NCBI GenBank assembly: GCA_963835925.1
Contig: CAWIHH010000004.1
Coordinates: 377,289-441,288, forward strand
DNA: 64,000 nt
Direction of reading: 5' to 3'
Source: Candidatus Bathyarchaeota archaeon
GTDB lineage: Archaea > Thermoproteota > Bathyarchaeia > 40CM-2-53-6
This document shows positions 6,057-35,176 of the stretch, one piece after another (positions within the stretch are counted from its first letter, which is position 1; the number at the start of each line of letters is the position of its first letter). The notes below the pieces were generated by a model, which had not been told where the DNA came from, searched no databases, and saw only the letters and a program-made list of their open reading frames with translations. A program made the translations under genes and the position numbers.

Positions 6057-6064
6057 CCGCAGCG

Positions 6065-6274
6065 TCAGTCTCTCAGCAGTCGGATTAGCAAGAAGATGCC
6101 AACAAGAAAAACGGCAAGTGCAATTATGGCAGCAGCTGAGATCGGTATTTTCAGCCTACTCATCATTATATCTGCCAAATAACTCGGAGACATTATCATG
6201 ACTACTGACACAAGCGCGACCATGAAGTCTCGGGGTCCTCGTTTTCTCGGTTGCACTTGAGATTTTTCTGCCAA
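6065..6274 (-). CDS. small two-helix membrane protein, unknown function
   Basis: 69-aa ORF with two hydrophobic helices, lying convergent to the M50 gene. Confidence 0.35.
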   Translation of the reverse strand: MAEKSQVQPRKRGPRDFMVALVSVVMIMSPSYLADIMMSRLKIPISAAAIIALAVFLVGIFLLIRLLRD

Positions 6275-6336
6275 CCATGTTCACCTGTGAAACTGACTAG
6301 GTCCCTGGTTCCGTCAAATAAAAACTTCCCATAGGC

Positions 6337-6342
6337 TTTATA
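6337..6342 (+). promoter_or_regulatory. TATA-box-like element upstream of gdhA
   Basis: TTTATA lies 51-56 nt upstream of the gdhA ATG. A GGTGA Shine-Dalgarno-like element lies about 11-15 nt before the start. Confidence 0.35.
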
Positions 6343-6392
6343 CAGAGTTATGTTTTGCACTATCTTCAATCCAATTTAGTTGGTGAAAAGGA

Positions 6393-16789: not shown

Positions 16790-16824
16790 AATTATCCTGT
16801 CTCGAAACAGCCCATGTTAAACCT

Positions 16825-19617: not shown

Positions 19618-20718
19618 TCAGCTCCTTGCCTTTACCGGAGTGTTGCCCCTAGCTCGGGTTACTTTACCTCTGGGTTTCTGCCGCGCTATGGCTCTGCGAG
19701 GAGACGCACGGGTTTTTCGTGACTTCGTGGTCCGCCGCTCATTATTAGCTAGTCTTCCTTCAATATGAAGCACAAGAGCGAGGAAAGCAACTATCCAGAT
19801 TGGGAACAGGATCTCGCCTATCGAATTATGAAAGGCGTCCAGTTCCTGTCCGGTGTATGCGTAGGCGAAGCCATAGTATGCAATTGTGAAAATCCGGATA
19901 ACGTTTAGGAAAATCGTTCCGAGTACGCCAATTGTCGCATAGATAACTTTCCTCTTGAGCGGCGAGTCCAGCTTTGCAGCGAGCAGTATCATGACTAGCG
20001 AGTAAATGAGCATGCTCTGAACTCCCACGCTGGGCCAGTAGACTGCGAGTCTAAAGAAGCCGTGAACTCCGTTGATGGTGAGGAGATTGCTAAAACCGTA
20101 GATTGGGAGTCCGACAAGCCATGCGAGAAAGCCGACCGAGGCCACAATGGAATTAGCCCAGAACTGTAATGGCCCGATGCTTCCGTATGGGAAGAAGGCA
20201 TCGAGTAGGTAGAAGATGAGCATTCCGATCGACAGGATTATTGGAGTGATAACGCCGCGAACCGCTTTCACACCGAAGAGTACTATTGAGAGCACAAGTA
20301 GATACAACGCCATTACGAAGTAATCACTAGCCATTAGCCAACTGTTGCTAACCTGCCCTGACGCACCTAATGTCTTGCCGACCGAATAGATCATCGCCGT
20401 GAACACGGGCAATACGCCAAGCCCTCCAAAATAGACTAGACCCAGCCCCAGAACTATGATGGCCGCGATTAGGTAGGGTCGGTTGAGACGTGGCTTGTGG
20501 TCTTTTCGAAAGTCCCATAGTTCGAACGCCAAGAAAAACAGCACGAAAAAAAGCCCTCCCCGGCCGAGCTTGCCGAACCCTGCCCAGCTGAGTTCGAAAG
20601 TGTCCGGCGCTAGAGCGAATAACACTAGGACTGGAATTGCGGCCAAGATGAGCAGTAAGTCCGCGGATCTGAGGCGGCTAATCAGGGCTGCTTTGAACTG
20701 CTTCCTCGAGTACTGCAT
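19618..20718 (-). CDS. archaeosortase/exosortase-family homologue with Ser in place of the catalytic Cys; long basic C-terminal tail
   Basis: 366 aa, polytopic. It aligns by eye to the small archaeosortase at 33491-34027: VYWPS230VGVQS vs ERMC77TGVQV, LNVIR275I vs ANVAR119I, and AFH297NSIG vs LAH138YPTG, with similar spacings (37/34 and 20/17 residues). The codon at 20029-20031 is AGC. The last 45 aa are Arg/Lys-rich. Confidence 0.6.
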   Translation of the reverse strand: MQYSRKQFKAALISRLRSADLLLILAAIPVLVLFALAPDTFELSWAGFGKLGRGGLFFVLFFLAFELWDFRKDHKPRLNRPYLIAAIIVLGLGLVYFGGLGVLPVFTAMIYSVGKTLGASGQVSNSWLMASDYFVMALYLLVLSIVLFGVKAVRGVITPIILSIGMLIFYLLDAFFPYGSIGPLQFWANSIVASVGFLAWLVGLPIYGFSNLLTINGVHGFFRLAVYWPSVGVQSMLIYSLVMILLAAKLDSPLKRKVIYATIGVLGTIFLNVIRIFTIAYYGFAYAYTGQELDAFHNSIGEILFPIWIVAFLALVLHIEGRLANNERRTTKSRKTRASPRRAIARQKPRGKVTRARGNTPVKARS

Positions 20719-20742
20719 GTGCTGCCGCCAGAGATGAGCCTG

Positions 20743-21492
20743 TCAGAAGATTCTGTCTTTCGGGAACACTTCTACGCCAGATTCGGAGATTTGATAGGGC
20801 CGGAGCTGAGTATCATGCGCGACCCCTCTCATCTTCTCAATTTGTATTCCTCGAATCACGTTTCCGTCATGAACCATAGTATGCAAAAGCACAACACCTT
20901 CAGAGAGAAATTCCTCAAGCTGAAATCTACGCTCAAGGACTGATGTTCGAAGCTCACTTATCATCAGACACGAGCATCCTGTTGACTCAAGTGCATCAAA
21001 AAAGAGCAGCAGCGCCTTTCTCCGCTTAACTTCCTCCGGGTATCGAAGCATGAGCGAAGTTATGGGGTCAACAATAATCCTCTGCGTTCCCTCCTCCGCG
21101 GCGATGCGCCTAATCGTTCTCAACAATGAGCCTAACGTCACTTCCGGTAGTGTCAAGGTGATTCGATCTTCTGGGCTAACCATACCCTGACCAATTCTGT
21201 TCGACGGCTTCCGCAGCTCGGTCGCGTCTATGAACGTAATCTTGCCATCATGCTCCAAAGCATCCAAATTCCAGCCAAACGAGGACAGGTTTGCTTTCAT
21301 TCGTTCCGGCTTTTCTTCCAGCGATATATACAGCCCAGGTTCACCCAAGTTTCCCCCGCCGACCAGGAACTGCATACCAAACGTAGTTTTTCCGGATCCT
21401 GGGCTCCCAACAACCAGAATCGTCCGCCCCTTCAGAAGACCACCGTGGAGCATCTCGTCGAGCCCTTTGATTCCTGTAGTGACACGGTCCAA
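20743..21492 (-). CDS. KaiC/RecA-superfamily ATPase (single-domain, archaeal KaiC-like)
   Basis: 249 aa. Has TGIKGLDEMLHGGLLKGRTILVVGSPGSGKTTFGMQF (Walker A), a Walker B region (RIIVDPITSL) and the IQIEKMRG..H tail typical of PF06745-type ATPases. Confidence 0.8.
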   Translation of the reverse strand: MDRVTTGIKGLDEMLHGGLLKGRTILVVGSPGSGKTTFGMQFLVGGGNLGEPGLYISLEEKPERMKANLSSFGWNLDALEHDGKITFIDATELRKPSNRIGQGMVSPEDRITLTLPEVTLGSLLRTIRRIAAEEGTQRIIVDPITSLMLRYPEEVKRRKALLLFFDALESTGCSCLMISELRTSVLERRFQLEEFLSEGVVLLHTMVHDGNVIRGIQIEKMRGVAHDTQLRPYQISESGVEVFPKDRIF

Positions 21493-21642
21493 TGTAATCT
21501 GACTCAGTTTAATTCAACAACCTTACAGAGGTCAGTATTAATTCATTCTTTCTAACGGCGCCAACTGAACACAATCACATTCTTCGAGCCATCCTCAAAA
21601 GTCGACGCGCATGGCGCGGACTGTCGTCTTGTTTTCGTGAAT

Positions 21643-21649
21643 AAAAAAA
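21643..21649 (-). terminator. oligo-T tract downstream of the PEF-CTERM giant gene
   Basis: A T7 run on the minus strand about 32 nt after the stop at 21681-21683. A flanking 6-bp inverted repeat (cgtctt/aagacg) lies around it. Archaeal terminators are typically oligo-T. Confidence 0.35.
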
Positions 21650-21680
21650 GACGGAAAAAGGGAGGGTACGCTCGCAGTGC

Positions 21681-24600
21681 CTATTGGCGTCTGCGGCGTA
21701 GTAGGTATAGTGATGCTGCAAGCGCTGATAGTGCTACGACTGCTATTCCGCTGAACTCTGGGACTGGAATGTTGCTTTGCGGCAATCCAACGTTATTACC
21801 AGAGCCTGGAACGGACGACTGCCCGCTCGTGACACTGATAGTGCCCATTGGTGTTGATCTGTATCCTGGACCTGACATGCTCATACTGTACGTGCCTGGA
21901 ACCAAGTAGAATTCGTAGATGCCATCCTCCGTGTACGATGCGAACGAGGGACCTGTTGCGTTCCCTACCGCCGCGCCTTGCACGGTTACTGTGTACCAGC
22001 TGATGGATCTGAACTCATTGCTCCAGGTGAACGCTAGCGCTGTTCCTGAAATGTATCCGTTCAGGTCGACTTCCCAGATTGCACTGCTCTCTCCGCTCAG
22101 TGGTGCGTTGGTGAAAGTCCACACGCCCTGCTGGCTGTATGGGCCTAGATGGTTGGCGACCATTGAGTGGCCGAGGAAGTACTTGTCCAGTGCCCCGTCT
22201 TCAGTTAAGCTGATGTGGCTTGTTGCTGCTGTGCCTGGAATGATGTGGAACGATTCTCCCATTAGGAGACCTGGAACCACTGGATAGAAGTTGTTGAAGT
22301 AGCTATTGGCTTTGATTAGCTCGTGCTGGCTTATTGGACTGACTGCGGATGGGTCTTGTGGGACCATTGAGTCGTTGAGGTACCAGTTGACGAAGTCTGA
22401 CTCGGCAGTCCAACCCGTACCAGTATAGTCGGGTTGTCCGAGTATGCCTTGGTTGGCGAAGTGTGCTTTGGCAACGGACCAGTAATCGGCTGGCCAATTG
22501 TCAATTTCGAAGTCGCTGCCTGTGCCTGGTGTGAAGACTGGGTCGCCGTACGAAGCGTAAGGAGGAAGACCTGCTGTCTGGATGTGAAGCTGAGTCACTC
22601 CGCCTGGCACGTAGTTCAAGCCACCACCGATTGGGTAGCTAGCGGCCGTCAGTTGAGTGTTGTCCGCTGCTCTAGCTCTACCGTTGCTTGATCCTGGACT
22701 GCCAGTGATGACTGCATTACCGTTGATGTATGTAGTACCGTAGGTGTAGACGCCTTCGCTTGACATCCATTCTGCGACTAGTCTGCCTGAGTCGTCGAAG
22801 AAGCGTACTCTCGCTGACATGTTGTAAGGTGTTCCAGTGACCAAATGCTCCTTCTTGAAGATTATGTCCAATGTCAGGTTTACGCCGATTAGAAGGTTAA
22901 TTTTCATGTCGGCGATTTGGCCCTTGTTAACGTAGATCGCGTAATCTTTGTCTTGTATGTAGCCGTAGGTTTGGCCTTGGAAGAAGTATTGACCGGAATC
23001 GAGTGCTCCTGGGTATAGGTGGCTATCGGTGAACAGGCCCCAAGCGTTCTTGGCGCTGCCGACGGTGAACACGTCATAACTCCACATGTATCCACCAACG
23101 TCACTACCTGTACCTGCAGGACAGCTTAGGCTGGTGCAGGCATTACCTGTCTTCGTTACGGGTATAGCCTCATCGTTGTCTCCAGCGAAGTAGGCGACTT
23201 CTTTTCCGAACCAGACATATTTCGCGTTGCCTGTTCCTCTGCCTTCTATCTCGCTAAAGTATGTTGAGCGGTTCTGGAAGTAACCTATAGTCCCGAAAGC
23301 GTTGCCCGCTTTGTTTAGCCCTGCTTCATCTCCTGTACAAACGTAACATGCGGCTGCGACGAAGCTGTATTTGCTGTCGTAGACTCCGATGCTGATGTCC
23401 TTGCCGTTCCAGACCCAGTTACGATTAACTCTAGGTCTTTCCCAGTCAATGCTGTACACGGTGAAGTTGAAACCAACACCACGATACAAATGATTACTGA
23501 CTAGAATTGGAGTTCCACTGAGTGTGACTGAGACTAGGTCCTGGGTTTGTTGTAGGTAACCTAACGCTTGCACCTTCGGTCTATAGGTGCCAGCTGGGAT
23601 ACCGTAATTTTGTCCAAGCCAAGTGCTGTTGAACCCGTAGAAGGTAACATACGAGTTACCGTACTGGTTCATGTAATTGATATTCGCTTGCTGCTGCGCT
23701 AATAGATTGTTCGTGTACGTCGTGCCGTACGCTAGACCGGTGAAATCCGTGAATACAGGTTGAGCAGTTGCGCATGGGTATTGAGTGGTACCGCAGAGCA
23801 ATGTTTGGTTGTAAGAGTACAATACGCCTGATCGGGAATCCAGTAGACTACCAACCAGAACATTTGCGCCCGTATCGATTGGACTTGTAACTAATGTTCC
23901 TGCGTTGTCGTGGAAGTGAACTGTCTTGTTAACCCAACTGCTAATCCTGAGGTCGAGTGGAATCGAAATGTCACCAGCCCACTCGTTCGGAGTGACCTGG
24001 AACGAATATTCTTGGAATGTTGCGCCGTCAATGGCGGTTTGAACGTATCGGAAGACCCACGCGCGAACGTAGTATCTTCCAGCCGTCAACCCGTTAACCC
24101 ATGTGGCGTAGCGTTGTGGAACGTGTCCATCAAGGTCTCTGGGAGCACCGAACATGCCTTTCTCTCCGAACTCATAATGGAACTTGTCGTTAACACCGTC
24201 AGCGACAACATACCAATTCTGAGCCGGACCAACACCCTCTGGATCAGTGGATGGCGTTGCTCCGGTGAACACTCCACCAGGGCCGCCAAGAACTTGGTTC
24301 CAGTAGGTATCGGGGGCGCCGATGCCGCTAATAGGGGCACCTCCCCATGGGAAGGCGATTTTCTGAGCTGTTCGTGGATCTCCACAAGCATTTGCGTCAT
24401 CTCCTGGGTAGTAGTTTGTTTGACCGCCCGCGACGCATGGTAGCGGGGACCAGGAGACTAGGCTAGCGTTTGAGCTGGGTACGTTGTTGACTGTGGGTTT
24501 ATCGTAAAGTTCAATCTTAATGTACTCTCTTCCCGGACCGTTGGTACCAGTGAACTGTCCTATTCCATTAAAGCAGGCGCTAACACTAGCACAGTATCCG

Positions 24601-25193
24601 TCAGCAGTGTAGGGTCCTGTATCACCGTAGAAAGGCCATGGTTCTGATCCGAAAGCGTGTTTACTGAACACGTCTCCGTGAATTACTGGACCAGGGTTCA
24701 AGTATCCATCAAAGTGCAACGATTGCCCCTTGAGAACCTGAACGTTAGTGGCGATTGGTGTAAGCGGATATCCAGCAGCCTCAGCGTAGAGGGTGTAAAC
24801 GCCTGGCGCAACACCTTCCACCTCATAATGGCCGTCAGATGTTTCGTTGAAGTAGCCGACTGCATCAGCACAACCAACCGCAGAAGGATTGCTCGCCTTA
24901 GTGCAGTCAACCACACTCTTGCCAGTGTACGGATCAAACTTGGTCTGCATTTGAGCCCAAACTTTACCCGCCAATTCAACTGGTTGACCGTAGAGTGTTG
25001 AGTTGTAACCACCGTACTTGATTGTTCCAGTAATGATGGATGGATCAAGCTCACCCTTCACAAGCAGCACAGGCCAGTTAGGAGTAGGAACCCAACCTGA
25101 TGGGTCAGCTGTGCCTGTCTGGGCATTTAGTGGACCGGTAAGGGTACTGGGTATAATTCCAGCGCCGTTCGGTCCAACGCTTTGGGACGTCAC
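21681..25193 (-). CDS. giant PEF-CTERM surface (S-layer-like) glycoprotein candidate
   Basis: 1170 aa, rich in Tyr/Gly/Thr/Asn with many N-x-S/T sequons. It has repeated G.Y..... motifs (GVAPGVYTLYAEAAGY, IPAGTYRPKVQALGY, LVPGTYSMSMSGPGY) like carboxypeptidase-regulatory/Ig-like modules. The C-terminus is NIPVPEF-SGIAVVALSALAASLYLL-RRRRQ. There is no N-terminal signal peptide in this ORF (see finding). Confidence 0.75.
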   Translation of the reverse strand: MTSQSVGPNGAGIIPSTLTGPLNAQTGTADPSGWVPTPNWPVLLVKGELDPSIITGTIKYGGYNSTLYGQPVELAGKVWAQMQTKFDPYTGKSVVDCTKASNPSAVGCADAVGYFNETSDGHYEVEGVAPGVYTLYAEAAGYPLTPIATNVQVLKGQSLHFDGYLNPGPVIHGDVFSKHAFGSEPWPFYGDTGPYTADGYCASVSACFNGIGQFTGTNGPGREYIKIELYDKPTVNNVPSSNASLVSWSPLPCVAGGQTNYYPGDDANACGDPRTAQKIAFPWGGAPISGIGAPDTYWNQVLGGPGGVFTGATPSTDPEGVGPAQNWYVVADGVNDKFHYEFGEKGMFGAPRDLDGHVPQRYATWVNGLTAGRYYVRAWVFRYVQTAIDGATFQEYSFQVTPNEWAGDISIPLDLRISSWVNKTVHFHDNAGTLVTSPIDTGANVLVGSLLDSRSGVLYSYNQTLLCGTTQYPCATAQPVFTDFTGLAYGTTYTNNLLAQQQANINYMNQYGNSYVTFYGFNSTWLGQNYGIPAGTYRPKVQALGYLQQTQDLVSVTLSGTPILVSNHLYRGVGFNFTVYSIDWERPRVNRNWVWNGKDISIGVYDSKYSFVAAACYVCTGDEAGLNKAGNAFGTIGYFQNRSTYFSEIEGRGTGNAKYVWFGKEVAYFAGDNDEAIPVTKTGNACTSLSCPAGTGSDVGGYMWSYDVFTVGSAKNAWGLFTDSHLYPGALDSGQYFFQGQTYGYIQDKDYAIYVNKGQIADMKINLLIGVNLTLDIIFKKEHLVTGTPYNMSARVRFFDDSGRLVAEWMSSEGVYTYGTTYINGNAVITGSPGSSNGRARAADNTQLTAASYPIGGGLNYVPGGVTQLHIQTAGLPPYASYGDPVFTPGTGSDFEIDNWPADYWSVAKAHFANQGILGQPDYTGTGWTAESDFVNWYLNDSMVPQDPSAVSPISQHELIKANSYFNNFYPVVPGLLMGESFHIIPGTAATSHISLTEDGALDKYFLGHSMVANHLGPYSQQGVWTFTNAPLSGESSAIWEVDLNGYISGTALAFTWSNEFRSISWYTVTVQGAAVGNATGPSFASYTEDGIYEFYLVPGTYSMSMSGPGYRSTPMGTISVTSGQSSVPGSGNNVGLPQSNIPVPEFSGIAVVALSALAASLYLLRRRRQ
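21684..21761 (-). other. PEF-CTERM tripartite sorting signal
   Basis: A PEF motif, a 17-18 residue hydrophobic helix and an RRRRQ cluster at the extreme C-terminus. Confidence 0.8.
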
Positions 25194-25963
25194 TGGTTAG
25201 CGTCTTCCAGGAACATTTTGAAGAAGTATCTGCCAGCGATCGTTGGTGCAGTTACACCGTTGACTCTAACATAATACCATTCATCTTGTCCCGTGTAGAA
25301 GTGAATTGGGTTATTCCCGCCGTTGCATGCCCCGTCCGCACACGTTCCTGTATCAGCGAGGATTCTGATTAGAGTCCAGCCTGGAACGTATCGGTCGTAT
25401 GCATTAGCAGTGAAAGTCCAAATGTTCGCGTAATTGTTTGTGATGGTTGTAACGACTTGTTCAGGTGTGTTTGGAACTTTGAACTCAGGAGGGATAGCGA
25501 TCCAGAGTGCGCTGTACTGGCACGTAGGTCCCGGGCAACTGGCCCATGTTCCGGTGCGGTTGATTGCGAAGATCAAGTCACCCGTCGAACCGACCACAAT
25601 AGCGCCGAAAGGCGCGTACTCATCACCGTCAGATTGGGCATAGTTCTGAGACCAAATGGTTGGGTAGAGACCTGCTTTCGTTAAGGCGTTGACTGGATAT
25701 GGTGCGACATATCCGGGTCCTACAATCTTCAAAGTGTTAGGTACACTTCCAGTTGGAGAACCGTCGTATGTGTCTTCACCACCACCAGGCCAAACATACC
25801 CAATTACGCCTGGGATGTGCGGATCAAAGTTCGTCACTGTGTATGGGTAAGCGCCTTCGTTGTTCAACCCAAGCGTAAAGTGCGCTTGGACTGGAGCGAG
25901 GATTGCGATTGTACTTAGTAGGAATATTGCTATAGTTAGACTTGCAGCTAATTTCTTATTCAA
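25190..25963 (-). CDS. secreted protein (signal peptide), possibly the N-terminal part of the PEF-CTERM giant protein
   Basis: 257 aa, TTG start, with signal peptide LTIAIFLLSTIAILAPVQA-H and no anchor. It ends AGRYFFKMFLEDANQ* and overlaps the GTG of the next ORF by GTGA. Its composition is similar to the 1170-aa ORF, and it has a related motif (AGRYFFKMF vs AGRYYVRAWVF). Confidence 0.55.
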   Translation of the reverse strand: MNKKLAASLTIAIFLLSTIAILAPVQAHFTLGLNNEGAYPYTVTNFDPHIPGVIGYVWPGGGEDTYDGSPTGSVPNTLKIVGPGYVAPYPVNALTKAGLYPTIWSQNYAQSDGDEYAPFGAIVVGSTGDLIFAINRTGTWASCPGPTCQYSALWIAIPPEFKVPNTPEQVVTTITNNYANIWTFTANAYDRYVPGWTLIRILADTGTCADGACNGGNNPIHFYTGQDEWYYVRVNGVTAPTIAGRYFFKMFLEDANQ

Positions 25964-26039
25964 ATTTTCATTTACTCCTTTAATTCATTTGGAATGCGCA
26001 CATTCTGCGCGCACAAAAGGCTCCTAGCTCCCCAATGCG

Positions 26040-26047
26040 TATATAAG
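26040..26047 (-). promoter_or_regulatory. strong TATA box (CTTATATA) for the surface-protein operon
   Basis: Minus-strand cttatata lies about 77-84 nt upstream of the TTG start at 25963. An AAAGGAG Shine-Dalgarno-like element sits close to the start. The GAATG-CGCA-CATTC palindrome (25992-26005) lies between them. Confidence 0.45.
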
Positions 26048-26130
26048 AGCGATAGTTGGGTTCCGACACATACGCCGATTCAATCTGAACCGTCTTTGTT
26101 CCAGGCCGGCAGACGTTTCACCACATTTTT

Positions 26131-27655
26131 CTACGAGCGCCCAAAATTTGGATTTTGTGCTTGAAAGCCAACCGCGCTGGCTCGTCTCTTTGCGACGCTG
26201 CGCGATCGGGTTTTGACTTTCGCTCTAGGTTTAGAGCGTTTCGCTCTCAGAGTCAAGGCGCCCGCAAGGAGAACGATTGCGATGATCGCGATTATTCCGT
26301 ATATGAAATCTGAGCGTTGTTCCACTGGGGGTTGAGTTAATGTGGTTATTTCTACGGTTTCTTGCGTTGTTTGTTCCATGGTTGTGGAAGGCGTTCGACG
26401 CCGTAACTGTTGCGAACGAGACTGGGTATTCTCCTGGAATGCTTACGTACGCGGCCCTTACCAAAGCGTACAGTGCTAGTGCATCAACGCCAAGATCAGC
26501 GTACCCGATGGTACCGTTACGATCAATTCCTGCATAGAACCCTCCACCGCCAGCGGGGCCCGTTGCACTCTGCAGGTCCGTGGAAAGTTCATTTTTCCCA
26601 GTTATCCAATCATACAATCTTGACGAATCATTCCAGTAAACCTCGGGACCGAGGTTGATCCAAACATCCACCGTCGCTTGAAGTACCGACGTCACACCCA
26701 TGGTTGTCTTCGGGTATGAGATCACACCTCCAGTTCCCCTTCCGTATGCTATGCCACCCCAAGAGTCGAAGAGTCTCTCCACGAAACCAACCATCCAGTC
26801 AATCATCACCTGCTTGAGATCTGTGATGGATGGTTGGAAGTCTTGAAGGAGCAGTGAGGCTGCCTTGTAGTAGCTGTTCAACCCGAACATGATGAGTCCA
26901 TTCTCGAAGGAAGGTTGAAGTGTCCTGCTTTGGTCGGAGTAGAATCCCCCAAAGCCCCAAACGGAACTGTTTTTCTCCTGAAATGAAAACAGCCAGCTCG
27001 CGATGTTCTGGGCCAACTTGGCATATTTAGTTGCGAGATTTCCGTCTCCCCAGCTATGTTCGAACAGCGCGATATAGGTGAGGCTCACGAGGAGCGCTGC
27101 GTTCGCTGCAATATCAGCTCTGGTCGTCCCATCGGAAAAAGAGAACACTACCGCACCATCGTTATTCTGAGCGGAGACAACCCATGAGTCTACGCATTTC
27201 CTGAGGATGTCGATCACACCCGCCCAATATGTTTTCTCAGCTTGGTCTTGACTTGTGATTACAAATGCCGCGTATGCTGGTCCCATCATTGCATACGAAT
27301 TCCAAGAATAGAGCCGTCCTCCGTTGCTCCAGCTTTGGTTGTTGAGATCGAAATACTCATAGAAATCTCCGGAAGCAGTTTGCGCTCTTCCAATGAAATC
27401 CGCTGAAGTTTTGATATACGAATAGGAATCTTGGGAGTAATGCGTTTCCTGATAAGCTGAAAGAGCCAAAGCTACTAGACTGGCGTCTTCCGAGTACATT
27501 CTTCCAGGCTCCCCTGTACCGGGTGCATGTAAGAAACCTCGCGCCTGAGAAGTGGCGTGCAGCTGGTCCTCGATGAATCCTATCTCTGATCTGAGCCTAT
27601 CCTCAATCCCGCGAGTGGCAGCACCGTGAGCAGAACTAAAGGAACTTACGAACAA
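26131..27655 (-). CDS. secreted repeat-helical (possibly alpha/alpha-toroid) protein with Thr-rich linker and C-terminal anchor; frame broken once (fragments 26231-27655 and 26131-26379)
   Basis: The 474-aa ORF ends in a low-complexity, out-of-frame-looking tail. The overlapping frame reads TTMEQTTQETVEITTLTQPPVEQRSDF-IYGIIAIIAIVLLAGALTL-RAKRSKPRAK, which is a linker, a helix and a basic tail. The body has many W/Y/G-rich helical repeats, and its function is unknown. A signal-like NIKRFFALFAILLL continues in frame upstream of the first canonical start. Confidence 0.45.
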
Positions 27656-27877
27656 GAGTAGGATTGCAAAGAGGGCGAAAAATCGTTTGATGTTCGTCTC
27701 GCGCTCCCTCCTCAGTCGCCTATGTACCTCTCAGAATTGCAGGTTATAATTTCCTTTCCGTCTGGAACCCGGTTGCACATGAGCAGACCCAACGAGCATT
27801 CTAGAGCGGCGAAAAGCTACGCGAACTACGCGAATCTCCAATAACCCTAAATTGGGACGAAGAAGTACCGCCCGTGG

Positions 27878-30034
27878 ATGTCGTTGACGCGGCCACGCTT
27901 CTTGTTCATGGTCCTCGCGCTTCTAATCATTATAACGCCGAGCGCGAGCGTTTGGCCCCAAGCGTCACCCATCAATTACATCGTACTCTATGCGCACACT
28001 TCCAACAATTCTCGCATCCTAAACGCAGTCCCAAACTGGGGCGGCATCAGAATCGAGAACGTGAACGGGACACTGAGTTTCAAACTGACCCCCACACTTG
28101 GAGAGAATTTGCGAATCACCGGTGCAATAGCTGTAACGCTCTACATGCGAGCTACTTCTGGAGTTCTGAGCAATTTGAATTTCAGCTTGACTGAGCTCAA
28201 AAGCACCGGAGTGCAGGTGCCCGTTCCCGGAGCGAAAATTCAATCACTCACAGTATTAGACACGCGATTTCTCCCATTCACGGTGGGCGTTGGCGTAATT
28301 GACTATGAATTTCAAAAGGGTTCTGCGATCGTGCTCTCGGTCCGAGTAGACGCCAACAGCGCCACGCCTTATCTCGCATGGGATGACCCCTCGGCGCCCA
28401 CTAGCATCACACTTCCAGCCGTGAGCCCACTGCATGTTGCAATCACATTTCTAGATTATCAATCCCATCGAGCAAATCTGATTCAAACCGAGAATCAGAC
28501 CAGTTTAGTTCAAGTGCACTTCAGAGCAAACGTGACGGATCCAATAGGAATCTACCGATTGAACAACGCCATAGCAATTATCAATGCACCAAACGGAACT
28601 TCTTCAAGAATTCAACCAGCACAGCAATTCATCTCGCAATATGCCAACGATTACTCTTTTGATCTTGCGCTGGGTGCGGGATCATGGCACGTGACTCTTG
28701 AAGTCAATGACAAGTCGGGTGGCGTTTACGATTTCTTAGGCGAAATCTTAGTGACTCCATTCTATCACGTCGAAGTAAACGTCGTCGATTCGTCAGGAAG
28801 AGGTCTGGCGAATGCCTCGGTAAGCGTCTTCTACCAACAGCTTCAGGCTTGGAGTGGTGTTACAAATTCCACTGGGTGGGTACCGCTCGAATTGCCCGAC
28901 ACGGGAATAGTTGGCCCATTGAATCTAACGGTGAGTTGGTCGGGGGTGCAATCGTTTTCAGAGCTGAAGGTGGTGGGGAGAACCATGAGCGTTGTGAGGG
29001 TTCCTGTGTTTGATAAGACTGTGCGCCTGACTGTGGGCGGAATCCCCCTGCCGGGGGCAACAGTTCGGTTGCTCAAGAACAGCAGGACGCTGACCCAAAC
29101 CTTCAGTGGGTACGATGGCACGGTAACCTTCCACGGTCTGCCGATGAACAATTACACTCTGAGTGCCCAGTATCTATTCAGTCAATTCAATATGACTTTG
29201 AATGTGAACTCGAGCGAAATTTCAACCATCAATCTCCCCGTCCCGCATCAACCTGAACTGGTAACCTTAGTGCTGGTAGCTGGAGTTGTAGCGGTGACAG
29301 CGCTCGAAAGGAGAAGAAGAAAATCATACCCGCAGAGTTTCGGTTACTTTAATCAGCTAACTTCTGGCGGGCTACCTCAAACCTGTTTCGCGTTAGTGAC
29401 CGGTAACTCTGGAGCGGGCAAGAGCGTTCTCTTGGAAACTCTTGCGATCGAACACTCGACCATAGGGCAGAGCGTATTCATCACTAACACCGAGTCCCCT
29501 CGGAAGATCCGCGAAAGCATGAGAAGTATCGGAATGAAGGGGGAATTTGAAAATGCGCGAATTGTCTTCGTGGATGCCTATTCGGCGATTGGCGGTGCGA
29601 ACTCTGAAGAGAAATTTGCAGTGTCCTCGCACACTGACCTCACGGGTCTGGGATTGGTGATCTCGAAATGTCTTTCTGAAACAGGTCCTGGAACGGACGT
29701 GTACATAGATTCCATCAGTCCACTATTAGCTGATCTTCGAGTCAACTTCGTAATCAATTTCCTGAACTCCGTCGCGGTCAAGGTAAAATCCAACAATGGC
29801 AAACTCTGCGTTACGACAGGCACGGGCATAGAGAAATCTGACCTTAGCAAAATAGAGGAGGTAGCGGACTGCGTAATTGAAACGCAACTCCAAGAATCTC
29901 GGCGCGGCCAAACAAGAAGACTGCGAATAAAGAAGCTGCGCGGCAAAGCCTACGTCGACAAGTGGGTTAGCTTCCACATAGAAGCAGACAAGGGCATAGT
30001 TTTCTTTTCGAGGACCAAGCCGATCAAAGACTAA
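27878..30034 (+). CDS. membrane-tethered KaiC-like ATPase with large N-terminal extracellular beta-rich domain
   Basis: 718 aa. A signal peptide (FLFMVLALLIIITPSASV) is followed by about 440 aa with sequons and carboxypeptidase-regulatory-like modules (VEVNVVDSSGRGLANASVSV..., GATVRLLKNSRTLTQTFSGYDGTVTF). Then come a TM helix plus ERRRRK, and a C-terminal ATPase (LTSGGLPQTCFALVTGNSGAGKSVL..., DVYIDSISPL, RLRIKKLRG). Confidence 0.7.
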   Translation: MSLTRPRFLFMVLALLIIITPSASVWPQASPINYIVLYAHTSNNSRILNAVPNWGGIRIENVNGTLSFKLTPTLGENLRITGAIAVTLYMRATSGVLSNLNFSLTELKSTGVQVPVPGAKIQSLTVLDTRFLPFTVGVGVIDYEFQKGSAIVLSVRVDANSATPYLAWDDPSAPTSITLPAVSPLHVAITFLDYQSHRANLIQTENQTSLVQVHFRANVTDPIGIYRLNNAIAIINAPNGTSSRIQPAQQFISQYANDYSFDLALGAGSWHVTLEVNDKSGGVYDFLGEILVTPFYHVEVNVVDSSGRGLANASVSVFYQQLQAWSGVTNSTGWVPLELPDTGIVGPLNLTVSWSGVQSFSELKVVGRTMSVVRVPVFDKTVRLTVGGIPLPGATVRLLKNSRTLTQTFSGYDGTVTFHGLPMNNYTLSAQYLFSQFNMTLNVNSSEISTINLPVPHQPELVTLVLVAGVVAVTALERRRRKSYPQSFGYFNQLTSGGLPQTCFALVTGNSGAGKSVLLETLAIEHSTIGQSVFITNTESPRKIRESMRSIGMKGEFENARIVFVDAYSAIGGANSEEKFAVSSHTDLTGLGLVISKCLSETGPGTDVYIDSISPLLADLRVNFVINFLNSVAVKVKSNNGKLCVTTGTGIEKSDLSKIEEVADCVIETQLQESRRGQTRRLRIKKLRGKAYVDKWVSFHIEADKGIVFFSRTKPIKD

Positions 30035-30252
30035 GCGCGAGCTGCCCCTTTTATTCATCGATTGATTCGACGCAAGCACTCCCGCTTTCCCAGTCGGCCT
30101 TGGCCAGTTCCAGGCCAATATTCCAGCACCTGTTAACATACGGCTCAAATTACGACTTCGTCAATCACCAATTGACGATTGTTACACGGTGGCATTAGAA
30201 TTCAAGGATCTCGTGATCAGTTGGAGAGTACGTGGTGGGATAACTGGCCATT

Positions 30253-32562
30253 CTAGTTAGCGACGGCCCTGGCCACTAACACGCTGAACCCTAGCGGTAC
30301 GAGCAGGGCGTTGCTTGCTACCAAAAGAAGCGTTGAAGCCGTAAGCAGCGACTGGGGGACCGTTAGAAAGGACCCGCTTGCGATCAGAATGGCTAGCGTA
30401 GCGATCCACATGGTAAACAGTGGGATAAGCCATATAACGCTCGGCGACCGCCGATTCTTTGATGCGCGGTAGGAAAATATTACTGCGCTTATTGGGAAAA
30501 CGAACACGAATCCAAGCAAGAGGCTTCCTATGAAATAGCCAACCACTGGAGCACCTCCTGAAACTAGCAATGCGGCGAGTAGAGCCCCAAGTGCCAAGAA
30601 TGCCCGAGCCAGAGCGATGGGTGTGGAGGCAAACAGCCAACCATTTGTCACCTTCGGCAATTCTTGAGAAATGTTTGGCAAATTAACTGGGCCGCCCAGA
30701 TTTGCAGGAGCCGTGGTTTGTACCTTCACGGGCACCATGTCCCAGGATGAGACATGTCTTGCGTCACCTTGCCAGTACGCTCTTACAGTGTAGGATCCGG
30801 GCGCGTCTGGGGTCCAGGCGTAGGAGAAGAGCCCCCCCTGCCCTGTAGAGACATTCGCAATAGGTTGCCAATTCTCTCGGTCCGCACTGAACGACAAATG
30901 CACCGTTGAAAAATTGTCATCCACCGATAGCGATCCAGATATGGTCACCGGGTCCCCGGATATAGCGGAGACAGGGTTCACCTGAACGGTAATTGATGAA
31001 GGAGCTTTTTGTTGACTCGTGAAAACGACATTTATCGTAGTGGGTTTCGTCACGTTAACGATAGAAGTGGAAACCTGACCGTTAACTTGAAGGTCTATGA
31101 AGTTGTAGTTAACAGATGTTGCATGAATCTGTGTCGTGGGTACTTCGACGTCTAGTTGAGTATTATTGTCGGCCCAAAGTTCAGCTGCCTCGGTTCCATT
31201 GACTACTGTTGGTTTGCCGTTCACGTTGACCACAACAGTAGAATTCTTGGGGACGCCTGATAATTGGAGTTTAACGTCGTACTGTGTTTTCCAATTGGCG
31301 GTTACGTGTTTCGCCGAGTTCATAAGGACGTATCCTGTGCTTGAAGCGGAATTGTAGTCTCCGCTGAAACCTAGGAAAACCCGACGAGTACCATTTTGCG
31401 AACTCAAAATACTAGGAACACTAAAGGTCGCGTTAGTTCCGGCCTGATACCAACCCGCCCCTTTGCCATTGGAGTATTTGTTTTCGATCGTCAACGAGTA
31501 TTCCGTACGGTAGTTTGCCACGAGTTGAATGAGGGAATTCACACTCATATTGAGTGGGTTTGCTGTGCCATAATTGTCCCATGAGGAGAAACGCATTCTC
31601 ATGCCGTTTGTCGACGAAGTCTCATTTGGCACTTCGACCGATGCCCAATCGCCTGGGACGCCCACTGATAGTACGCCATTACTGTTCGTTTGAAATGGGA
31701 AACCATCGACTTTAACGATTGAACTTGATGTTGGAAGCCTTATCTCTAGAGTGGAGGCAAAATGGCCGTTGACCCATTGCGCATCGAATGCCCTACCTCC
31801 GGGGGTTCGGAAATCGTTGAGCCTAAGTTGATGTTCAAGAATCGTGTGATGCAGGTCGCTGTTTTGCATGTAGAGTATGGCGAAGTAGTAATTTCCAAGG
31901 TCGTCCGATAGAAGTGACCAGAGTTCGTTGTAGTCGTCGGGGCCGTTAAAGACTTGGGTCTGGAGAGAGGCTAGCTTCAAGCTAATTGAACCATTCAACA
32001 CCGTACCATAATTCCCATCCACGAATATCTCACGCCCTAATACTGTGAAGCTGTTGGGAGCCTGGGATTTGACGTCAAAGTGTGGAGTTGGGGATGTTTA
32101 CCGAACCTGTGTTCACCAGTTTGCGGGAGATCTGTTGGGTGCCTTCTACGACTATTGTGTTGTAACTTCCACCCTGATATTCGAAAATTCTAAGCACGAT
32201 TTGGCTCGAGGAATTGGTCAAATAGAGGAAGGCGATGTAGAAGTCGTTCTGCGTTACATTCGCCAAGAAAATGATGTTGACTGGTCCACTGTCCCAATTC
32301 GCCGTCACATAACTCCATGGTATCAGTGTTATCTTTGAACTGTCAGTTGAAAGATAGCCTCCTTGGGGAGAGAGGTTCAGTGAGTAACCACTGCCAACTC
32401 CTTTGGCCGAGAAGTCTGGAACCTGATGAATTGCAGATCCGGGGGTTAGGAGTGGCGAGCTAATCGGTCGAGCGTCTGCGGCTCCAGTTCCATGGACCAC
32501 AATAGCGCGATCGTCAAGAGTACGAGAGAAAACGCCGTGGTCTTCCGACTGGTTTGGGTCAC
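30253..32562 (-). CDS. large surface protein with InlB-B-repeat-like modules and C-terminal polytopic region; two frame breaks (fragments 30253-32022, 32075-32500 and a signal-peptide frame from GTG 32562)
   Basis: The frame of the 589-aa ORF stays open upstream (..FDVKSQAPNSFTVLGREIF-VDGNYG) and meets the 141-aa ORF near 32078. A third frame from GTG 32562 encodes MTQTSRKTTAFSLVLLTIALLWS, a signal peptide. Repeats such as GWYQAGTNATFSV...RVFLGFSGDYNS...VTANWKTQY are present. The C-terminus has about 4 helices. Confidence 0.5.
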
Positions 32563-32848
32563 AGAGCTGCCGTCCTAATTGCGTTGGCTAGACTCCGTTC
32601 AGAGATGTACGTTCCCCACTATGGTTGTTAAATTCTGGAAGTGAACGGGTCCTATTGATTGCACTATTCATGTTCAGTTAAGCCAGGCATCATGTGAACA
32701 TGAAGCGAACTTTACGTTCAGGACCTTTTGCTACTCGTGTACATATCGCCGTGCGGACTTGTCGGAATCCATACGAATTTGAGAAAACATTGGAGAATAC
32801 ATGAAAACGTTTATTGCCCTTCTTGAGGCCGTCCTGAAGTGAGTTAAT

Positions 32849-33323
32849 ATGAGGCTAGCCCCTTACGCGGTTGGCATTGGGAATGTTACTAGCGTCTTTG
32901 TCCTCACGGCGCCCGCCATTTCAGCGCTATCCCCGCAGGGCGGCGGCCTAATTTTCGGCTGGGTTTACGGGTTCACTTGGGATAATCAGCTTGTTCCGCT
33001 TGCGTGGGTCCAAGTGACCGCATCAAATCCTAATGCCCTATCCAAATGCGCTATTCACTATCTCGACTGGGGGAAATGGAGTATTTGAAATGAACGTGCC
33101 CGCGGGAACTTACAATCTGACAGTTTCACCGCCCGGATTCCAAGCGCATAGCTCAATGGTGTCGGTGTCTGACGGCTCCTCATCATCAACCGCTTTCTAC
33201 TTGGAACAGTCCCACGTCCCAATTCCCGAATTCCCCACCCAGTGGGTCGCCTTGATACTCACCATTGCCCTAGCAACGACACTGCTCACTAGGAAGAACA
33301 CAAGACGCAAGCGCCAGCCGTGA
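32849..33323 (+). CDS. small PEF-CTERM protein with one carboxypeptidase-regulatory-like domain; frame broken once (fragments 32849-33088 and 33033-33323)
   Basis: Frame A reads ..GWVYGFTWDNQLVPLAWVQVTASNPNA and frame B reads YPNALFTISTGGNGVFEMNVPAGTYNLTVSPPGFQAHSSMVSVSDG. Together they make one beta-sandwich module. The C-terminus is HVPIPEF-PTQWVALILTIALATTLL-TRKNTRRKRQP. Confidence 0.6.
33225..33320 (+). other. PEF-CTERM tripartite sorting signal
   Basis: A PEF motif, a hydrophobic helix and a basic cluster at the C-terminus. It shares the context (I/V)P(V/I)PEF with the giant protein. Confidence 0.75.
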
Positions 33324-33490
33324 GTTTTCTGCTTAGTTCCTACAGGTTCCCATGGTTTCACCAGGGTCAGTTTGTTCGAGAATTGCGAATTTCACTCAAA
33401 TCGGCTCTGGGCCAAGAGAACCTTCAGAGACATCAGTGCATCTCTTCAGGCCAGCAACATTGATAATGCCCCTGCCTGCACTCAATAGCC

Positions 33491-34027
33491 ATGGACGATC
33501 AACGCAGCGAACGCCGGCACCAAGTCTACCTGCTCATGCGTTTTGCTGGAATTGCCTCAATTATCGCCATCGTTCTGTATTACGTGCCTAATTATTTCTT
33601 TCTTGAAAAGATCACAGCTGAGCACTCCGCCACGTTAATGGAGCTTATGGGAATCAAAGCTACCGTATGGACTCAGGGGAACTCGGTATTCCTGAACCAG
33701 TTCGAAGTTGAGCGAATGTGCACCGGCGTCCAGGTGGTTACAATATTCCTCGGGATTCTCGTAGCCCTCCCTAAGGCTGATGTCAAGCGAAGGATTCTGG
33801 CCTTTGGCGTCATCGCCATAAGCGTCTACTTCGCTAACGTTGCTCGCATAGCGTTTGAGATTTGGCTACTCTACACCGGGACCCTACCTTGGTCTCTCGC
33901 ACACTATCCCACGGGACTAATACTTGGGGTCTTTTCCGTAGCCTTCCTCGTGGTGGTTGCCGACCACTTCCTACCCGAAGTGGGAGACTTGGCATTCTCA
34001 GCCCTGGACGGTTTCCGAAGGGCGTAA
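33491..34027 (+). CDS. small archaeosortase/exosortase-family protein (canonical Cys/Arg/His)
   Basis: 178 aa with 4-5 helices. Has ERMC77TGVQ (the CxG nucleophile motif), ANVAR119I and LAH138YPTG. It lies directly downstream of the small PEF-CTERM gene. Confidence 0.7.
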   Translation: MDDQRSERRHQVYLLMRFAGIASIIAIVLYYVPNYFFLEKITAEHSATLMELMGIKATVWTQGNSVFLNQFEVERMCTGVQVVTIFLGILVALPKADVKRRILAFGVIAISVYFANVARIAFEIWLLYTGTLPWSLAHYPTGLILGVFSVAFLVVVADHFLPEVGDLAFSALDGFRRA

Positions 34028-35176
34028 TGTCTTTCCGCAGTGAACACAGTGTGTCCAGTCCTCCTCGACTGGTTCACCGCAACTCTCACAGAACTTTGGC
34101 GGGGCTACCTGAACAGTTTCCTGGTCTTCCGTTGGAGTCGACTTGGCTCTTTTTCTCCTAAGAAGGGCTAAGGCGACGCCTCCAAGTATTCCAATGGCAA
34201 GAACTGAAGGTAAGACCAAGGGGGTGTAATTCACCGCAAAATTCGCGTTCAGCACCTTGGGGCGGTCCATAGTGAAATTAATCGAGGGTGACCCTGAGTC
34301 TAAATCTCCAGACCAATCCTTGAATTCGTATTTAAGCCCAAGAAATTCGAGAGGCCCTCCCAGTGGGAGCGAACTCGCAACACGCAGGCTGACATTTGCA
34401 CCAATATTGTACCAGGCTGTTTGCGAATAAGTTGGAACAATGGAATCCACGTGTAGCAAGTATTGCGTCACGTAAAAGCCGACAAGTTTCGAGTTCCCGT
34501 TCAGCATCAGGATTCTATCTGTGCTGTTCATTCTGTCTTTCCAGCCCGCGAAGACCAATCTCGTTGAGTTTTCGAAAGTCAACAAACTGGGCACGCTGAT
34601 CTCATGAGCGATTCCGACGGGGAGCTGAAGAGCAACGGTTCCTGCGTTTGACGTTTTTCCTGTAGAATTATCAACTTTCACTGTGACATTGGGAATTCCC
34701 AGGTCCACCTCAAGGCTCGCAAGCTTAGCGACTTTGATCGTCAGCTCAGCAAAGCCCGGGCCTTGATAGTTGTCAGCATAGTACTGCCAGGTGCCGTTCT
34801 TGAAATAGTACGCGATAGCGGTTAGCACTAGATCTTGTTCGGTGTTGGGCGCTGTGAGGTTTACCGTCCAGAATTTGTCGCCACCTCTGCTCACATCGAT
34901 CTGGTCGCTGTGCCACAGCTCTGAGCCAAGATTCTTTAACGAACCTTGAAACAAGGTTGATTTGATTGTAGCGTTCGTATGTATTGCGTATTCGACATCG
35001 ACCACTAATGAGTATTGGCTCGAAGGGGCAACCTGTCGCGGGTATTGCGTCACAGCGACTCTCAGTAGGCCAACATTGGGTTCGTCGGCGGTGGCGAGTG
35101 ACACGCCGAAGATAGATAGGGCGACCAGCAACACTAGGAGCGACCCGATGAGTCTCCAGTATCTGATGCATTTCAC
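33998..35176 (-). CDS. surface protein with InlB-B-repeat-like modules, TM helix and cytoplasmic C-terminal zinc ribbon
   Basis: 392 aa. Has a signal peptide (LLVLLVALSIFGVSLATA), the module LKYEFKDWSGDLDSGSPSINFTMDRPKVLNANF, a TM (LPSVLAIGILGGVALALL-RRKRAK) and a tail FCESCGEPVEEDWTHCVHCGK. Confidence 0.55.
   Translation of the reverse strand: MKCIRYWRLIGSLLVLLVALSIFGVSLATADEPNVGLLRVAVTQYPRQVAPSSQYSLVVDVEYAIHTNATIKSTLFQGSLKNLGSELWHSDQIDVSRGGDKFWTVNLTAPNTEQDLVLTAIAYYFKNGTWQYYADNYQGPGFAELTIKVAKLASLEVDLGIPNVTVKVDNSTGKTSNAGTVALQLPVGIAHEISVPSLLTFENSTRLVFAGWKDRMNSTDRILMLNGNSKLVGFYVTQYLLHVDSIVPTYSQTAWYNIGANVSLRVASSLPLGGPLEFLGLKYEFKDWSGDLDSGSPSINFTMDRPKVLNANFAVNYTPLVLPSVLAIGILGGVALALLRRKRAKSTPTEDQETVQVAPPKFCESCGEPVEEDWTHCVHCGKTLRPSETVQG

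Follow-up and report, generated by a model that had tools for sequence, protein, structure and literature searches.

A 64,000-nucleotide stretch of the genome of an uncultured Candidatus Bathyarchaeota archaeon (contig CAWIHH010000004.1 of assembly GCA_963835925.1; hereafter, the window, whose numbering is used for all island coordinates) carries genes for two archaeosortase homologues, two KaiC-type ATPases, and a series of predicted surface proteins, two of which end in PEF-type signals. Here, we propose that this region is part of a cell-envelope biogenesis island of ~23 kb, in which a sortase anchors a PEF-tailed surface protein and the KaiC pair is most likely regulatory; we put the probability of this reading at about 60%. 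The window contains only two KaiC-like open reading frames (ORFs), only two sortase-family ORFs, and only two PEF-type tails, and all of them fall within the same 15.5 kb, a clustering that we consider to be beyond chance. The kinds of components were already known, and the pairing of a sortase with KaiC appears to be undescribed: a literature search linking archaeosortases with KaiC gave only an incidental co-mention, and one combining Bathyarchaeia and archaeosortases found nothing relevant. A preliminary description of this DNA had bounded the locus at 19618–35176. All the ORFs it listed are present at their coordinates, but these bounds leave out the genes with the tightest linkage to the sortase (16172–19611), and the locus with its context occupies ~11.8–35.2 kb of the window (Table 1). 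That description had also suggested that the locus may be a regulated surface-layer (S-layer) anchoring or remodelling system, a role that remains putative.

The window was compared with loci of relatives, denoted L001, L097, and so on. The set comprised 15 loci from GTDB genomes and four obtained via exact-protein look-ups of the Ser-type sortase clade, with four further loci around the small sortase (L104–L107) and four sister-clade loci (L100–L103). Loci L005 and L006 are short contigs, L015 was judged only within the available sequence, and L014 and L016 each hold half of the same gene from a single metagenome-assembled genome (MAG). The canonical comparison set consisted of 80 thaumarchaeosortase loci of ammonia oxidisers (835 kb) from a metagenome scan. 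Hidden Markov model (HMM) scores were read against the curated cut-offs (in bits: TIGR04178, 23; PF09721, 25.7; TIGR04297, 250; PF06745, 26.6; TIGR03024 PEF-CTERM, 23; TIGR04296 PEFG-CTERM, 25; ArlH, 215; NF006799, 408).

Sortases, KaiC-type ATPases, and PEF-tailed proteins

The core of the island is an array of six co-directional genes, which encode the single-domain ATPase KaiC249, the Ser-type sortase of 366 amino acids (aa), a 243-aa protein, a GT87-like protein, and proteins of 277 and 205 aa. From KaiC249 to the 205-aa protein, the successive genes are separated by 24 nt, by 6 nt, by two overlaps, and by 35 nt. An A/T-rich stretch precedes the KaiC249 start on its 5′ side, and a poly-T stretch lies 3′ of the large PEF gene upstream; KaiC249 probably heads its own transcription unit. 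Immediately beyond the large PEF stop codon, at 21640–21680, the minus strand carries the run ctttttccgtcttttttt, which resembles an oligo-T terminator of archaea and would divide the large PEF gene from the KaiC–sortase operon.

The 366-aa protein belongs to the archaeosortase superfamily, as the preliminary description had claimed, with 49.5 bits against TIGR04178 and 33 bits against PF09721. Its best specific match was the thaumarchaeosortase model TIGR04297 (142.7 bits, E = 1.7e-41, profile positions 7–301 of 307), under the cut-off that canonical members pass with 257.7–526.8 bits. A MAFFT alignment with the 178-aa sortase pairs Ser230 with the invariant Cys77 of that enzyme, and likewise Arg275 and His297 with its Arg and His. 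The 366-aa protein contains no Cys at all; of the Cys-Arg-His constellation of the superfamily, it has the Arg and the His, with Ser in the Cys column, and the Ser, Arg, and His are invariant across 14 orthologues. An exhaustive HMMER search of 1.84 billion representatives yielded only 279 relatives, among which the catalytic columns read Cys/Arg/His in 67 and Ser/Arg/His in 51. The Ser motif reads WPSVGVQS in the window; in the canonical P0138, P0143, and P0134, as in every representative scoring above the TIGR04297 cut-off (526.8, 270.2, and 257.7 bits), it reads WPSAGVHS. Because the canonical TIGR04297 members carry Ser too, a Ser at the nucleophile position is, as far as sequences tell, a trait of the whole thaumarchaeosortase branch. 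From one sister clade to the next, the triad switches between Ser/Arg/His and Cys/Arg/His; such a pattern would be expected if the nucleophile can be exchanged and speaks against an inactive enzyme.

An AlphaFold2 model of the 366-aa sortase, built from a 70-sequence alignment, reached a mean predicted local distance difference test score (pLDDT) of 89.2 and a predicted template modelling score of 0.81, and its search against solved structures gave no match (best E = 0.89). In L101 (7980–9116 and 10001–11089), and likewise in L102, Ser-type sortase paralogues stand in tandem. The upstream L101 paralogue keeps the Ser and the Arg, and its His motif reads LDAFSN in place of LDAFHN; the upstream paralogue of these two loci may be a degenerate partner subunit.

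KaiC249, which had been described as a stand-alone KaiC ATPase next to the sortase, scored 201.9 bits against PF06745 and matched a solved KaiC at E = 4e-54, and it gave 131.7 bits with PH0284 and ~131 bits with PH0186. Its Walker A and Walker B motifs are GSPGSGKT and RIIVD. The receptor-like KaiC718 is built as stated earlier, from an N-terminal hydrophobic segment, an ectodomain of ~440 aa with CarboxypepD_reg matches (43 bits), a transmembrane (TM) helix at ~458–476, and a KaiC domain at 490–712 (PF06745, 87.1 bits; DUF7504, 35.8 bits) that, like KaiC249, matches solved KaiC. Its Walker A motif is GNSGAGKS, and Walker A and B are intact in both proteins. Both KaiCs are ordinary single KaiC domains, and neither is a clock KaiC or ArlH: each has one such domain, where the clock protein has two in tandem (~500 aa), NF006799 gave 156.5 and 64.8 bits, and the ArlH model gave 21.6 bits for KaiC249 and 49 bits for KaiC718. 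Orthologues of the KaiC718 type occur in L003, L012, L097/L104, and L105–L107, with a similar fusion in L101, and every KaiC-like ORF in 381 kb of Bathyarchaeia loci is of either the KaiC249 or the KaiC718 type. The KaiC718 ectodomain showed no significant similarity to the large PEF protein.

The juxtamembrane part of KaiC718 (window 29230–29320, residues ~452–480) consists of NLPVPHQPE, the TM helix, and RRRRK, and resembles NIPVPEF followed by a TM helix and RRRRQ. The P-x-P-H of this segment is kept in close orthologues (L012, L104–L107). In an HMM search of 2762 ORFs, the segments ranked right below the true PEF tails, with E-values that are not statistically significant (0.043 for L012, 0.43 for L105, and 12 for the window).

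The 178-aa enzyme is the canonical archaeosortase it was taken for, as its Cys77, Arg119, and His138 are invariant in 121 sequences. It fits no named Art subfamily because all of its subfamily matches are below the respective cut-offs (heimdallarchaeosortase, 52.1 of 130 bits; ArtH, 40.2 of 200; ArtA, 33.8 of 75; ArtE, 30 of 95). A block of a KaiC718-type gene, surface protein genes, the small PEF gene, and the 178-aa sortase gene recurs in four further genomes. The pair of small PEF protein and small sortase is conserved in L104–L107, with the small PEF orthologue directly upstream of the sortase.

The large PEF-tailed protein, an S-layer candidate, ends in NIPVPEFSGIAVVALSALAASLYLLRRRRQ and matches CarboxypepD_reg with 44 bits. 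The preliminary description had counted its 257-aa and 1170-aa ORFs as two proteins; they are parts of one gene, split by a frameshift at ~25103–25208, and the orthologues are single ORFs of 1290–1473 aa (L097, L012, L104–L107). Outside the window, five loci share the tail NIP[VI]PEFS[GA]...SALAASLY[LI]LRRRR[QR] (in six ORFs, since L001 has two copies), and the gene lies directly upstream of the Ser-type sortase operon in the window, L001, L012, L013, and L097. In L001, the gene is tandemly duplicated (1–3111 and 3836–7550), and the second copy is split into two ORFs. The small PEF protein is homologous to residues 1090–1170 (the last ~85) of the large one (BLASTP E = 4e-8, 31% identity) and represents a stand-alone homologue of its membrane-proximal CarboxypepD_reg domain plus anchor (21681–21950). 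Its orthologues have 150–164 aa, and the tail HVP[IV]PEFP, TM helix, and basic residues recur in five loci. The tripartite tail noted earlier is strongly conserved. The N-terminus of the small protein is truncated by a frameshift at ~33034–33042, with the signal-peptide part (32849–33034) in the other frame. The generic tripartite signal (motif, TM helix, and C-terminal basic cluster) is present in both PEF proteins and conserved in the orthologues of both.

Linkage of KaiC to the sortase, proposed roles, and alternatives

Downstream of the Ser-type sortase, the genes for the 243-, 460- (GT87-like), 277-, and 205-aa proteins and the opposite-strand 446-aa gene are present in every Bathyarchaeia locus with enough flanking sequence. 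The 243-aa gene is the most tightly linked of all; it stands next downstream in all the Bathyarchaeia loci and in sister-clade L101 (56% identity). The 243-aa protein, the GT87-like enzyme, and three more membrane proteins are, thus, tighter partners of the sortase than KaiC is. KaiC249 itself immediately precedes the sortase both in the window and in nine of the 15 other informative Bathyarchaeia loci (L001, L008, L009, L010, L012, L013, L016, L097, and L099), and it lies 6–9 kb away in three more (L002–L004). In L003, KaiC249 and a KaiC718-type gene are divergent neighbours, with a small PEF-type protein nearby, and in L004, KaiC249 adjoins a PEF-tailed protein. The position of KaiC upstream of the sortase is taken by two zinc-ribbon surface genes in L002–L006, L015, and L098. 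In L101 and L102, the order is a KaiC fusion (701–734 aa), a sortase paralogue, a TM protein, a sortase (50% identical), and a 243-aa homologue (56%). This order differs from that of the window and yet joins KaiC with the sortase, and it is therefore the best evidence for a functional association. We regard the association of KaiC249 and KaiC718 with the sortase system in Bathyarchaeia as genuine. Among GTDB species representatives, nearly all relatives bear the label Candidatus Bathyarchaeia. One 8.4-kb contig with the KaiC–sortase operon (L009, DATKOK010000106.1) is filed under a Candidatus Methylomirabilota bacterium MAG and is probably a mis-binned archaeal contig.

Several observations weigh against the proposed reading. 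The linkage anticipated in the preliminary description holds within the lineage but not beyond it: none of the 80 canonical thaumarchaeosortase loci contains KaiC or any other gene of the module (tblastn and orthologue HMMs), and no KaiC was found in the Cys-type relative L100 or in the Ser-type paralogue locus L103. Within Bathyarchaeia, the loci in which no KaiC249 was seen are the short contigs L005 and L006, L015 in its available sequence, and L098 within 10 kb on either side. Since KaiC is absent from some sortase loci, the sortase needs no adjacent KaiC, and the KaiC–sortase linkage is specific to the Bathyarchaeia lineage. The synteny around the small sortase extends to an M50 peptidase, an acetyltransferase, a methyltransferase, and the thermosome; as housekeeping genes are included, conserved order alone is weak evidence of function. 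As to the substrates, the tails scored below the TIGR03024 PEF-CTERM cut-off (large protein, 18.3 bits; small protein, 12.8 bits), and TIGR04296 PEFG-CTERM gave 12.1 bits for the small tail and no match for the large one, so that HMM annotation bore out the sortase and KaiC domains and left the PEF-CTERM assignments under threshold. Both tails share P-[VI]-P-E-F, and this motif assigns neither of them to one sortase. The S-layer candidate had been called sequon-rich, but its 12 N-x-S/T sites compare with 10.3 ± 3.0 in shuffled sequences, which is no enrichment, and the window copy of its gene is frameshifted. A literature search found no paper with the term "thaumarchaeosortase" and no experimental work on the family.

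Alternatively, there may be no functional coupling at all: the KaiC genes would be neighbours through inherited order in a slowly rearranging lineage and would have another signalling role. The housekeeping genes in the synteny, the displacement or absence of KaiC in 5–7 loci, and its absence from the 80 ammonia-oxidiser loci, L100, and L103 all agree with such an explanation. However, in the rearranged L002–L004, KaiC249 stays by genes of the system (KaiC718-type and small PEF-type in L003, PEF-tailed in L004), and the different order in L101 and L102 again joins a KaiC fusion, Ser-type sortases, and the 243-aa protein. No further KaiC paralogues were found in the 381 kb of flanks or in the rest of the window, and the gene spacing is operon-like. 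We therefore consider coincidental neighbourhood unlikely, although it survives best among the alternatives.

For the regulatory reading, we suggest the following mechanism. By analogy with ArtA and PGF-CTERM, the large surface protein would be exported via its signal peptide, and, as in ArtA substrates, its C-terminal helix and RRRRQ stop-transfer tail would hold it in the membrane. The polytopic sortase would then, again like ArtA, cleave at P-E-F and transfer the protein to a membrane acceptor. The operon sortase is predicted to use Ser230 with Arg275 and His297 in place of Cys. Gene context points to the 243-aa protein as a probable, obligatory extracytoplasmic subunit of the sortase and to the glycosyltransferases as probable modifiers of either the substrate or the acceptor. 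The small Cys-type sortase would be paired with its own small PEF-tailed protein. KaiC249 and KaiC718 most likely form a regulatory ATPase pair; judging from their gene neighbours, the KaiC718 ectodomain may read the state of the envelope, and the pair may couple this state to the activity of the sortase or of the surface protein.

The KaiC proteins might instead work mechanically, with a membrane-docked RecA-type hexamer of KaiC718, possibly together with KaiC249, spending ATP on feeding substrates to the sortase or on pulling the cleaved remnant of TM helix and basic tail out of the membrane at its cytoplasmic face. Such a role would suit the place of KaiC249 as the first gene of the sortase operon, 24 nt from the sortase, the intact Walker A and B motifs of both KaiCs, and the PEF-like juxtamembrane segment of KaiC718; bacterial PEP-CTERM/exosortase loci also carry a dedicated ATPase family. 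On the other hand, the resemblance of that segment to a PEF signal lacks statistical significance, KaiC is missing from the neighbourhood of canonical thaumarchaeosortases and of the sortase in some Bathyarchaeia loci, and we know of no sortase, exosortase, or ArtA reaction that needs ATP. We judge a mechanical function to be decidedly unlikely.

The possibility that the Ser-type protein is a non-catalytic scaffold, or performs other chemistry, while the small Cys sortase processes all the PEF proteins draws on the missing canonical nucleophile in a protein devoid of Cys and on a complete Cys/Arg/His sortase 13 kb away, which adjoins a PEF protein whose PIPEF is like the PVPEF of the large protein. 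It is countered by the invariance of the Ser, Arg, and His in the clade, by the alternation of the two triads between sister clades, and by the 80 ammonia-oxidiser loci examined, in which no component of the module other than the Ser-type enzyme was found. Going by the TIGRFAMs descriptions, PEFG-CTERM proteins occur in these ammonia-oxidiser genomes, which are not known to carry any other sortase. The large PEF gene, moreover, precedes the Ser-type sortase operon directly in five loci, as described above, and we hold the scaffold explanation to be improbable. Least probable, in our view, is a new kind of ATP-coupled sortase machine to which the KaiCs are integral, with KaiC718 docked into the Ser-type sortase by its PEF-like pseudo-signal and the GT87-like GT-C enzyme, together with its neighbours, perhaps building a glycolipid acceptor; in such a machine, KaiC718 may be cleaved by the sortase to release a KaiC signalling module, or it may recruit KaiC249 to drive or gate the transfer, and if this were true, the ATP-coupled sortase system would be an archaeal analogue of glycosylphosphatidylinositol (GPI) anchoring.

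Further genes of the island and their gene models

Table 1 Features of the island in window coordinates.
Coordinates	Strand	Feature	Basis or remark
11847..13136	(-)	429-aa polytopic membrane protein	Distant paralogue of 446-aa protein (22-23% identity)
13206..13946	(-)	GT2 glycosyltransferase	PF00535, 82.8 bits; syntenic in L001 and L097
14073..14912	(+)	Secreted protein of 279 aa; TM helix and basic residues at the C-terminus	279-aa orthologue beside the 446-aa gene in L001, L097, and L098
14839..16179	(+)	446-aa polytopic membrane protein, ~8 TM by hydropathy	tblastn, 62-84% identity in 13 loci
16172..16789	(-)	205-aa four-TM protein, last gene of the sortase operon	TM prediction; orthologues in all loci whose flanks reach far enough
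16825..17658	(-)	277-aa extracytoplasmic protein anchored at its N-terminus	Operon position, orthologues
17633..19015	(-)	460-aa putative GT-C-type membrane glycosyltransferase, GT87/DUF2029-like	Likely true start near 18904-18925
18880..19611	(-)	243-aa protein: signal peptide, ~170-aa ectodomain, TM helix, basic tail	Directly downstream of the sortase
19618..20718	(-)	366-aa polytopic Ser-type thaumarchaeosortase-like archaeosortase	HMMs, alignments, AlphaFold2 model
20743..21492	(-)	KaiC249, single-domain KaiC-type ATPase, first gene of the sortase operon	PF06745, PDB matches, motifs
21681..25963	(-)	Large PEF-tailed surface protein, S-layer candidate, split into 257-aa and 1170-aa ORFs	Orthologue single ORFs, tail
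26131..27715	(-)	Surface-anchored ("helical repeat") protein	Orthologue comparison; anchor ORF 26131-26379
27878..30034	(+)	KaiC718, receptor-like membrane KaiC (718 aa)	PF06745, CarboxypepD_reg, DUF7504
30253..32500	(-)	~765-aa surface protein with three C-terminal TM segments	Orthologues; Big_3_5, 24.9 bits, below cut-off
32849..33323	(+)	Small PEF protein, ~155 aa, secreted, CarboxypepD_reg	Tail HVPIPEFP + TM + RRKRQP; orthologues
33491..34027	(+)	178-aa Cys/Arg/His archaeosortase	TIGR04178, 44.3 bits; PF09721, 37.4 bits
33998..35176	(-)	392-aa surface protein: signal/TM segment, TM 313-331, cytoplasmic zinc ribbon	CxxC...CxxC; PF13248, E = 6e-5, below cut-off

The 243-aa protein has a highly conserved ectodomain, with 57 invariant columns in 17 sequences, and profile searches of Pfam, NCBIfam, and the PDB gave no match; its single-sequence structure model (pLDDT 49.4) was too poor for a fold search. 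Orthologues of the GT87-like protein are present in all the loci at 60–81% identity, and 11 of 15 match PF09594 (GT87; best E = 3.1e-7). The window protein matched Alg6_Alg8 only (24.6 bits against a cut-off of 25) and had no sequence match in the PDB. The sortase operon is always followed by the 446-aa gene on the other strand, and searches of Pfam and the PDB with the product of this gene found no match. Its 429-aa paralogue has no Pfam match, and a syntenic 409-aa gene is present in L097. An assignment of the 446-aa and 429-aa proteins as GT-C enzymes was rejected, as neither Pfam nor the PDB supports it and an hhalign comparison with the GT87-like protein reached a probability of 16.6%. 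For the GT2 enzyme, we infer a role like that of a dolichyl-phosphate-sugar synthase. No rRNA, tRNA, or Rfam match was found over the 64 kb of the window.

Among the surface proteins, the anchor claimed for the helical-repeat protein exists, but in another frame (26131–26379), and a frameshift near 26380–26420 has to be assumed, with the true start at ~27715. The L097 orthologue of 489 aa ends in PVPEFPG, a TM helix, and RPRNR, and the window anchor ORF matched the PEF-tail HMM at E = 0.064. The surface protein first estimated at ~770 aa agrees in size with its orthologues (763–766 aa), whereas the window has ORFs of 589 and 141 aa in different frames, divided by a frameshift at ~32078–32091. 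An extra gene of ~961 aa stands between the KaiC718-type gene and the ~765-aa gene in L106 (3750–6641), L107 (3593–6478), and L105 (4043–6928) and is missing from the window; Peptidase_M6 and CARDB matches were obtained in L106 and L107 and no Pfam match in L105. The cytoplasmic zinc ribbon of the 392-aa surface protein, reported earlier, is in place. Surface proteins that end in a TM helix plus cytoplasmic zinc ribbon adjoin Ser-type sortases in several clades (L101, 758–2266 and 2301–3596; L103, 11309–12097 and 13172–14653). Genes paralogous to that of the 392-aa protein flank the sortase in loci designated "type B". TnpB (Cas12f1-like) genes lie within or beside the surface island in L098 (15537–17320, with a PIN-domain gene) and L107 (260–1279); L098 is also a locus without an adjacent KaiC.

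Relative to the orthologues, about seven frameshifts occur within 35 kb, in surface and housekeeping genes alike. Besides the four within the island, they affect a 242-aa nuclease-like gene (~36030) and, twice, an aminotransferase gene at 42.5–43.7 kb (~43300–43450). Because the frameshifts are not confined to surface genes, they are most likely uncorrected long-read assembly errors and not biology. Phase variation or pseudogenisation of the surface genes was rejected in view of the frameshifts in the nuclease-like and aminotransferase genes.

Relation to known systems and biological meaning

Judged by sequence, the closest relative of the 366-aa sortase is the thaumarchaeosortase of the computationally defined thaumarchaeosortase/PEFG-CTERM system of ammonia-oxidising Nitrososphaeria. 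Homology to the enzymes of the 80 canonical loci extends over the full length at 33–37% identity, the Ser/Arg/His residues are the same (WPSxGV...R...FH), and the candidate substrates carry a P-E-F-type signal. The window system differs in that its enzyme is below the TIGR04297 cut-off, its host belongs to Bathyarchaeia, and its tails read PEFS/PEFP and lie under the PEFG-CTERM cut-off. Its partners (KaiC and the 243-aa, GT87-like, 277-, 205-, and 446-aa proteins) are absent from the canonical loci.

The experimentally characterised archaeosortase is archaeosortase A (ArtA) of Haloferax volcanii, which acts on PGF-CTERM proteins and for which cleavage with lipid anchoring of a large surface glycoprotein is the presumed mechanism (PMC7157517, PMC6098224). 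The window enzymes share the TIGR04178 domain and the polytopic membrane topology with ArtA, and the large surface protein resembles its substrate in having a motif, a TM helix, and a basic tail. In contrast, the 366-aa enzyme has Ser and not Cys, the motif is PEF and not PGF, and the ArtA model, sub-cut-off for the 178-aa sortase as given above, did not match the 366-aa sortase. The literature search found no paper tying ArtA to a KaiC gene. ArtC/PEF-CTERM, to which the preliminary description had assigned the signals, is similar in its P-E-F, TM helix, and basic residues, and TIGR03024 was the best short-signal match of the large protein. Both tails are, however, under 23 bits, and the archaeosortase C model matched neither sortase (NCBIfam, E ≤ 0.1). 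An ArtC identity of the sortases was accordingly rejected; the Ser-type enzyme belongs to the TIGR04297 branch, and the subfamily matches of the 178-aa enzyme are all far below their cut-offs.

The KaiCs resemble PH0284, PH0186, and ArlH in having a single RecA-type KaiC domain with Walker A and B motifs and, like ArlH, are tied to membrane or surface machinery. Unlike the setting of ArlH, the window locus has no archaellum genes, and the partner of KaiC is a sortase operon; KaiC718 differs further from single-domain KaiCs by the ~440-aa ectodomain and TM helix that precede its KaiC domain. Makarova, Galperin and Koonin are said to have proposed, in 2017, that KaiC-like ATPases act as archaeal signalling hubs. 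Bacterial XrtA/EpsH PEP-CTERM loci are located in polysaccharide-biosynthesis clusters with dedicated regulators and an ATPase, as in the TIGRFAMs of Haft. The likeness to this system lies in a sortase-family enzyme among glycosyltransferases, accompanied by a P-loop ATPase and putative signalling parts. The window locus differs in its KaiC/RecA-type ATPase, its archaeal host, its Ser-type enzyme, and in that no two-component system was seen in the locus.

To our knowledge, archaeosortase biology has one experimental model, Haloferax ArtA, and nothing is known about the control of anchoring. The operon that joins a sortase and a KaiC, together with the receptor-like KaiC, offers a concrete and testable candidate for such control, and one orphan KaiC-like ATPase, among the many in archaea, gains a defined context. 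A branch of the superfamily (51 of the ~130 representatives with a full triad) with Ser in place of Cys raises the question of a serine-based sortase chemistry. Bathyarchaeia are globally abundant and still mostly uncultured, and the locus names their probable main envelope protein and the genes for its processing.

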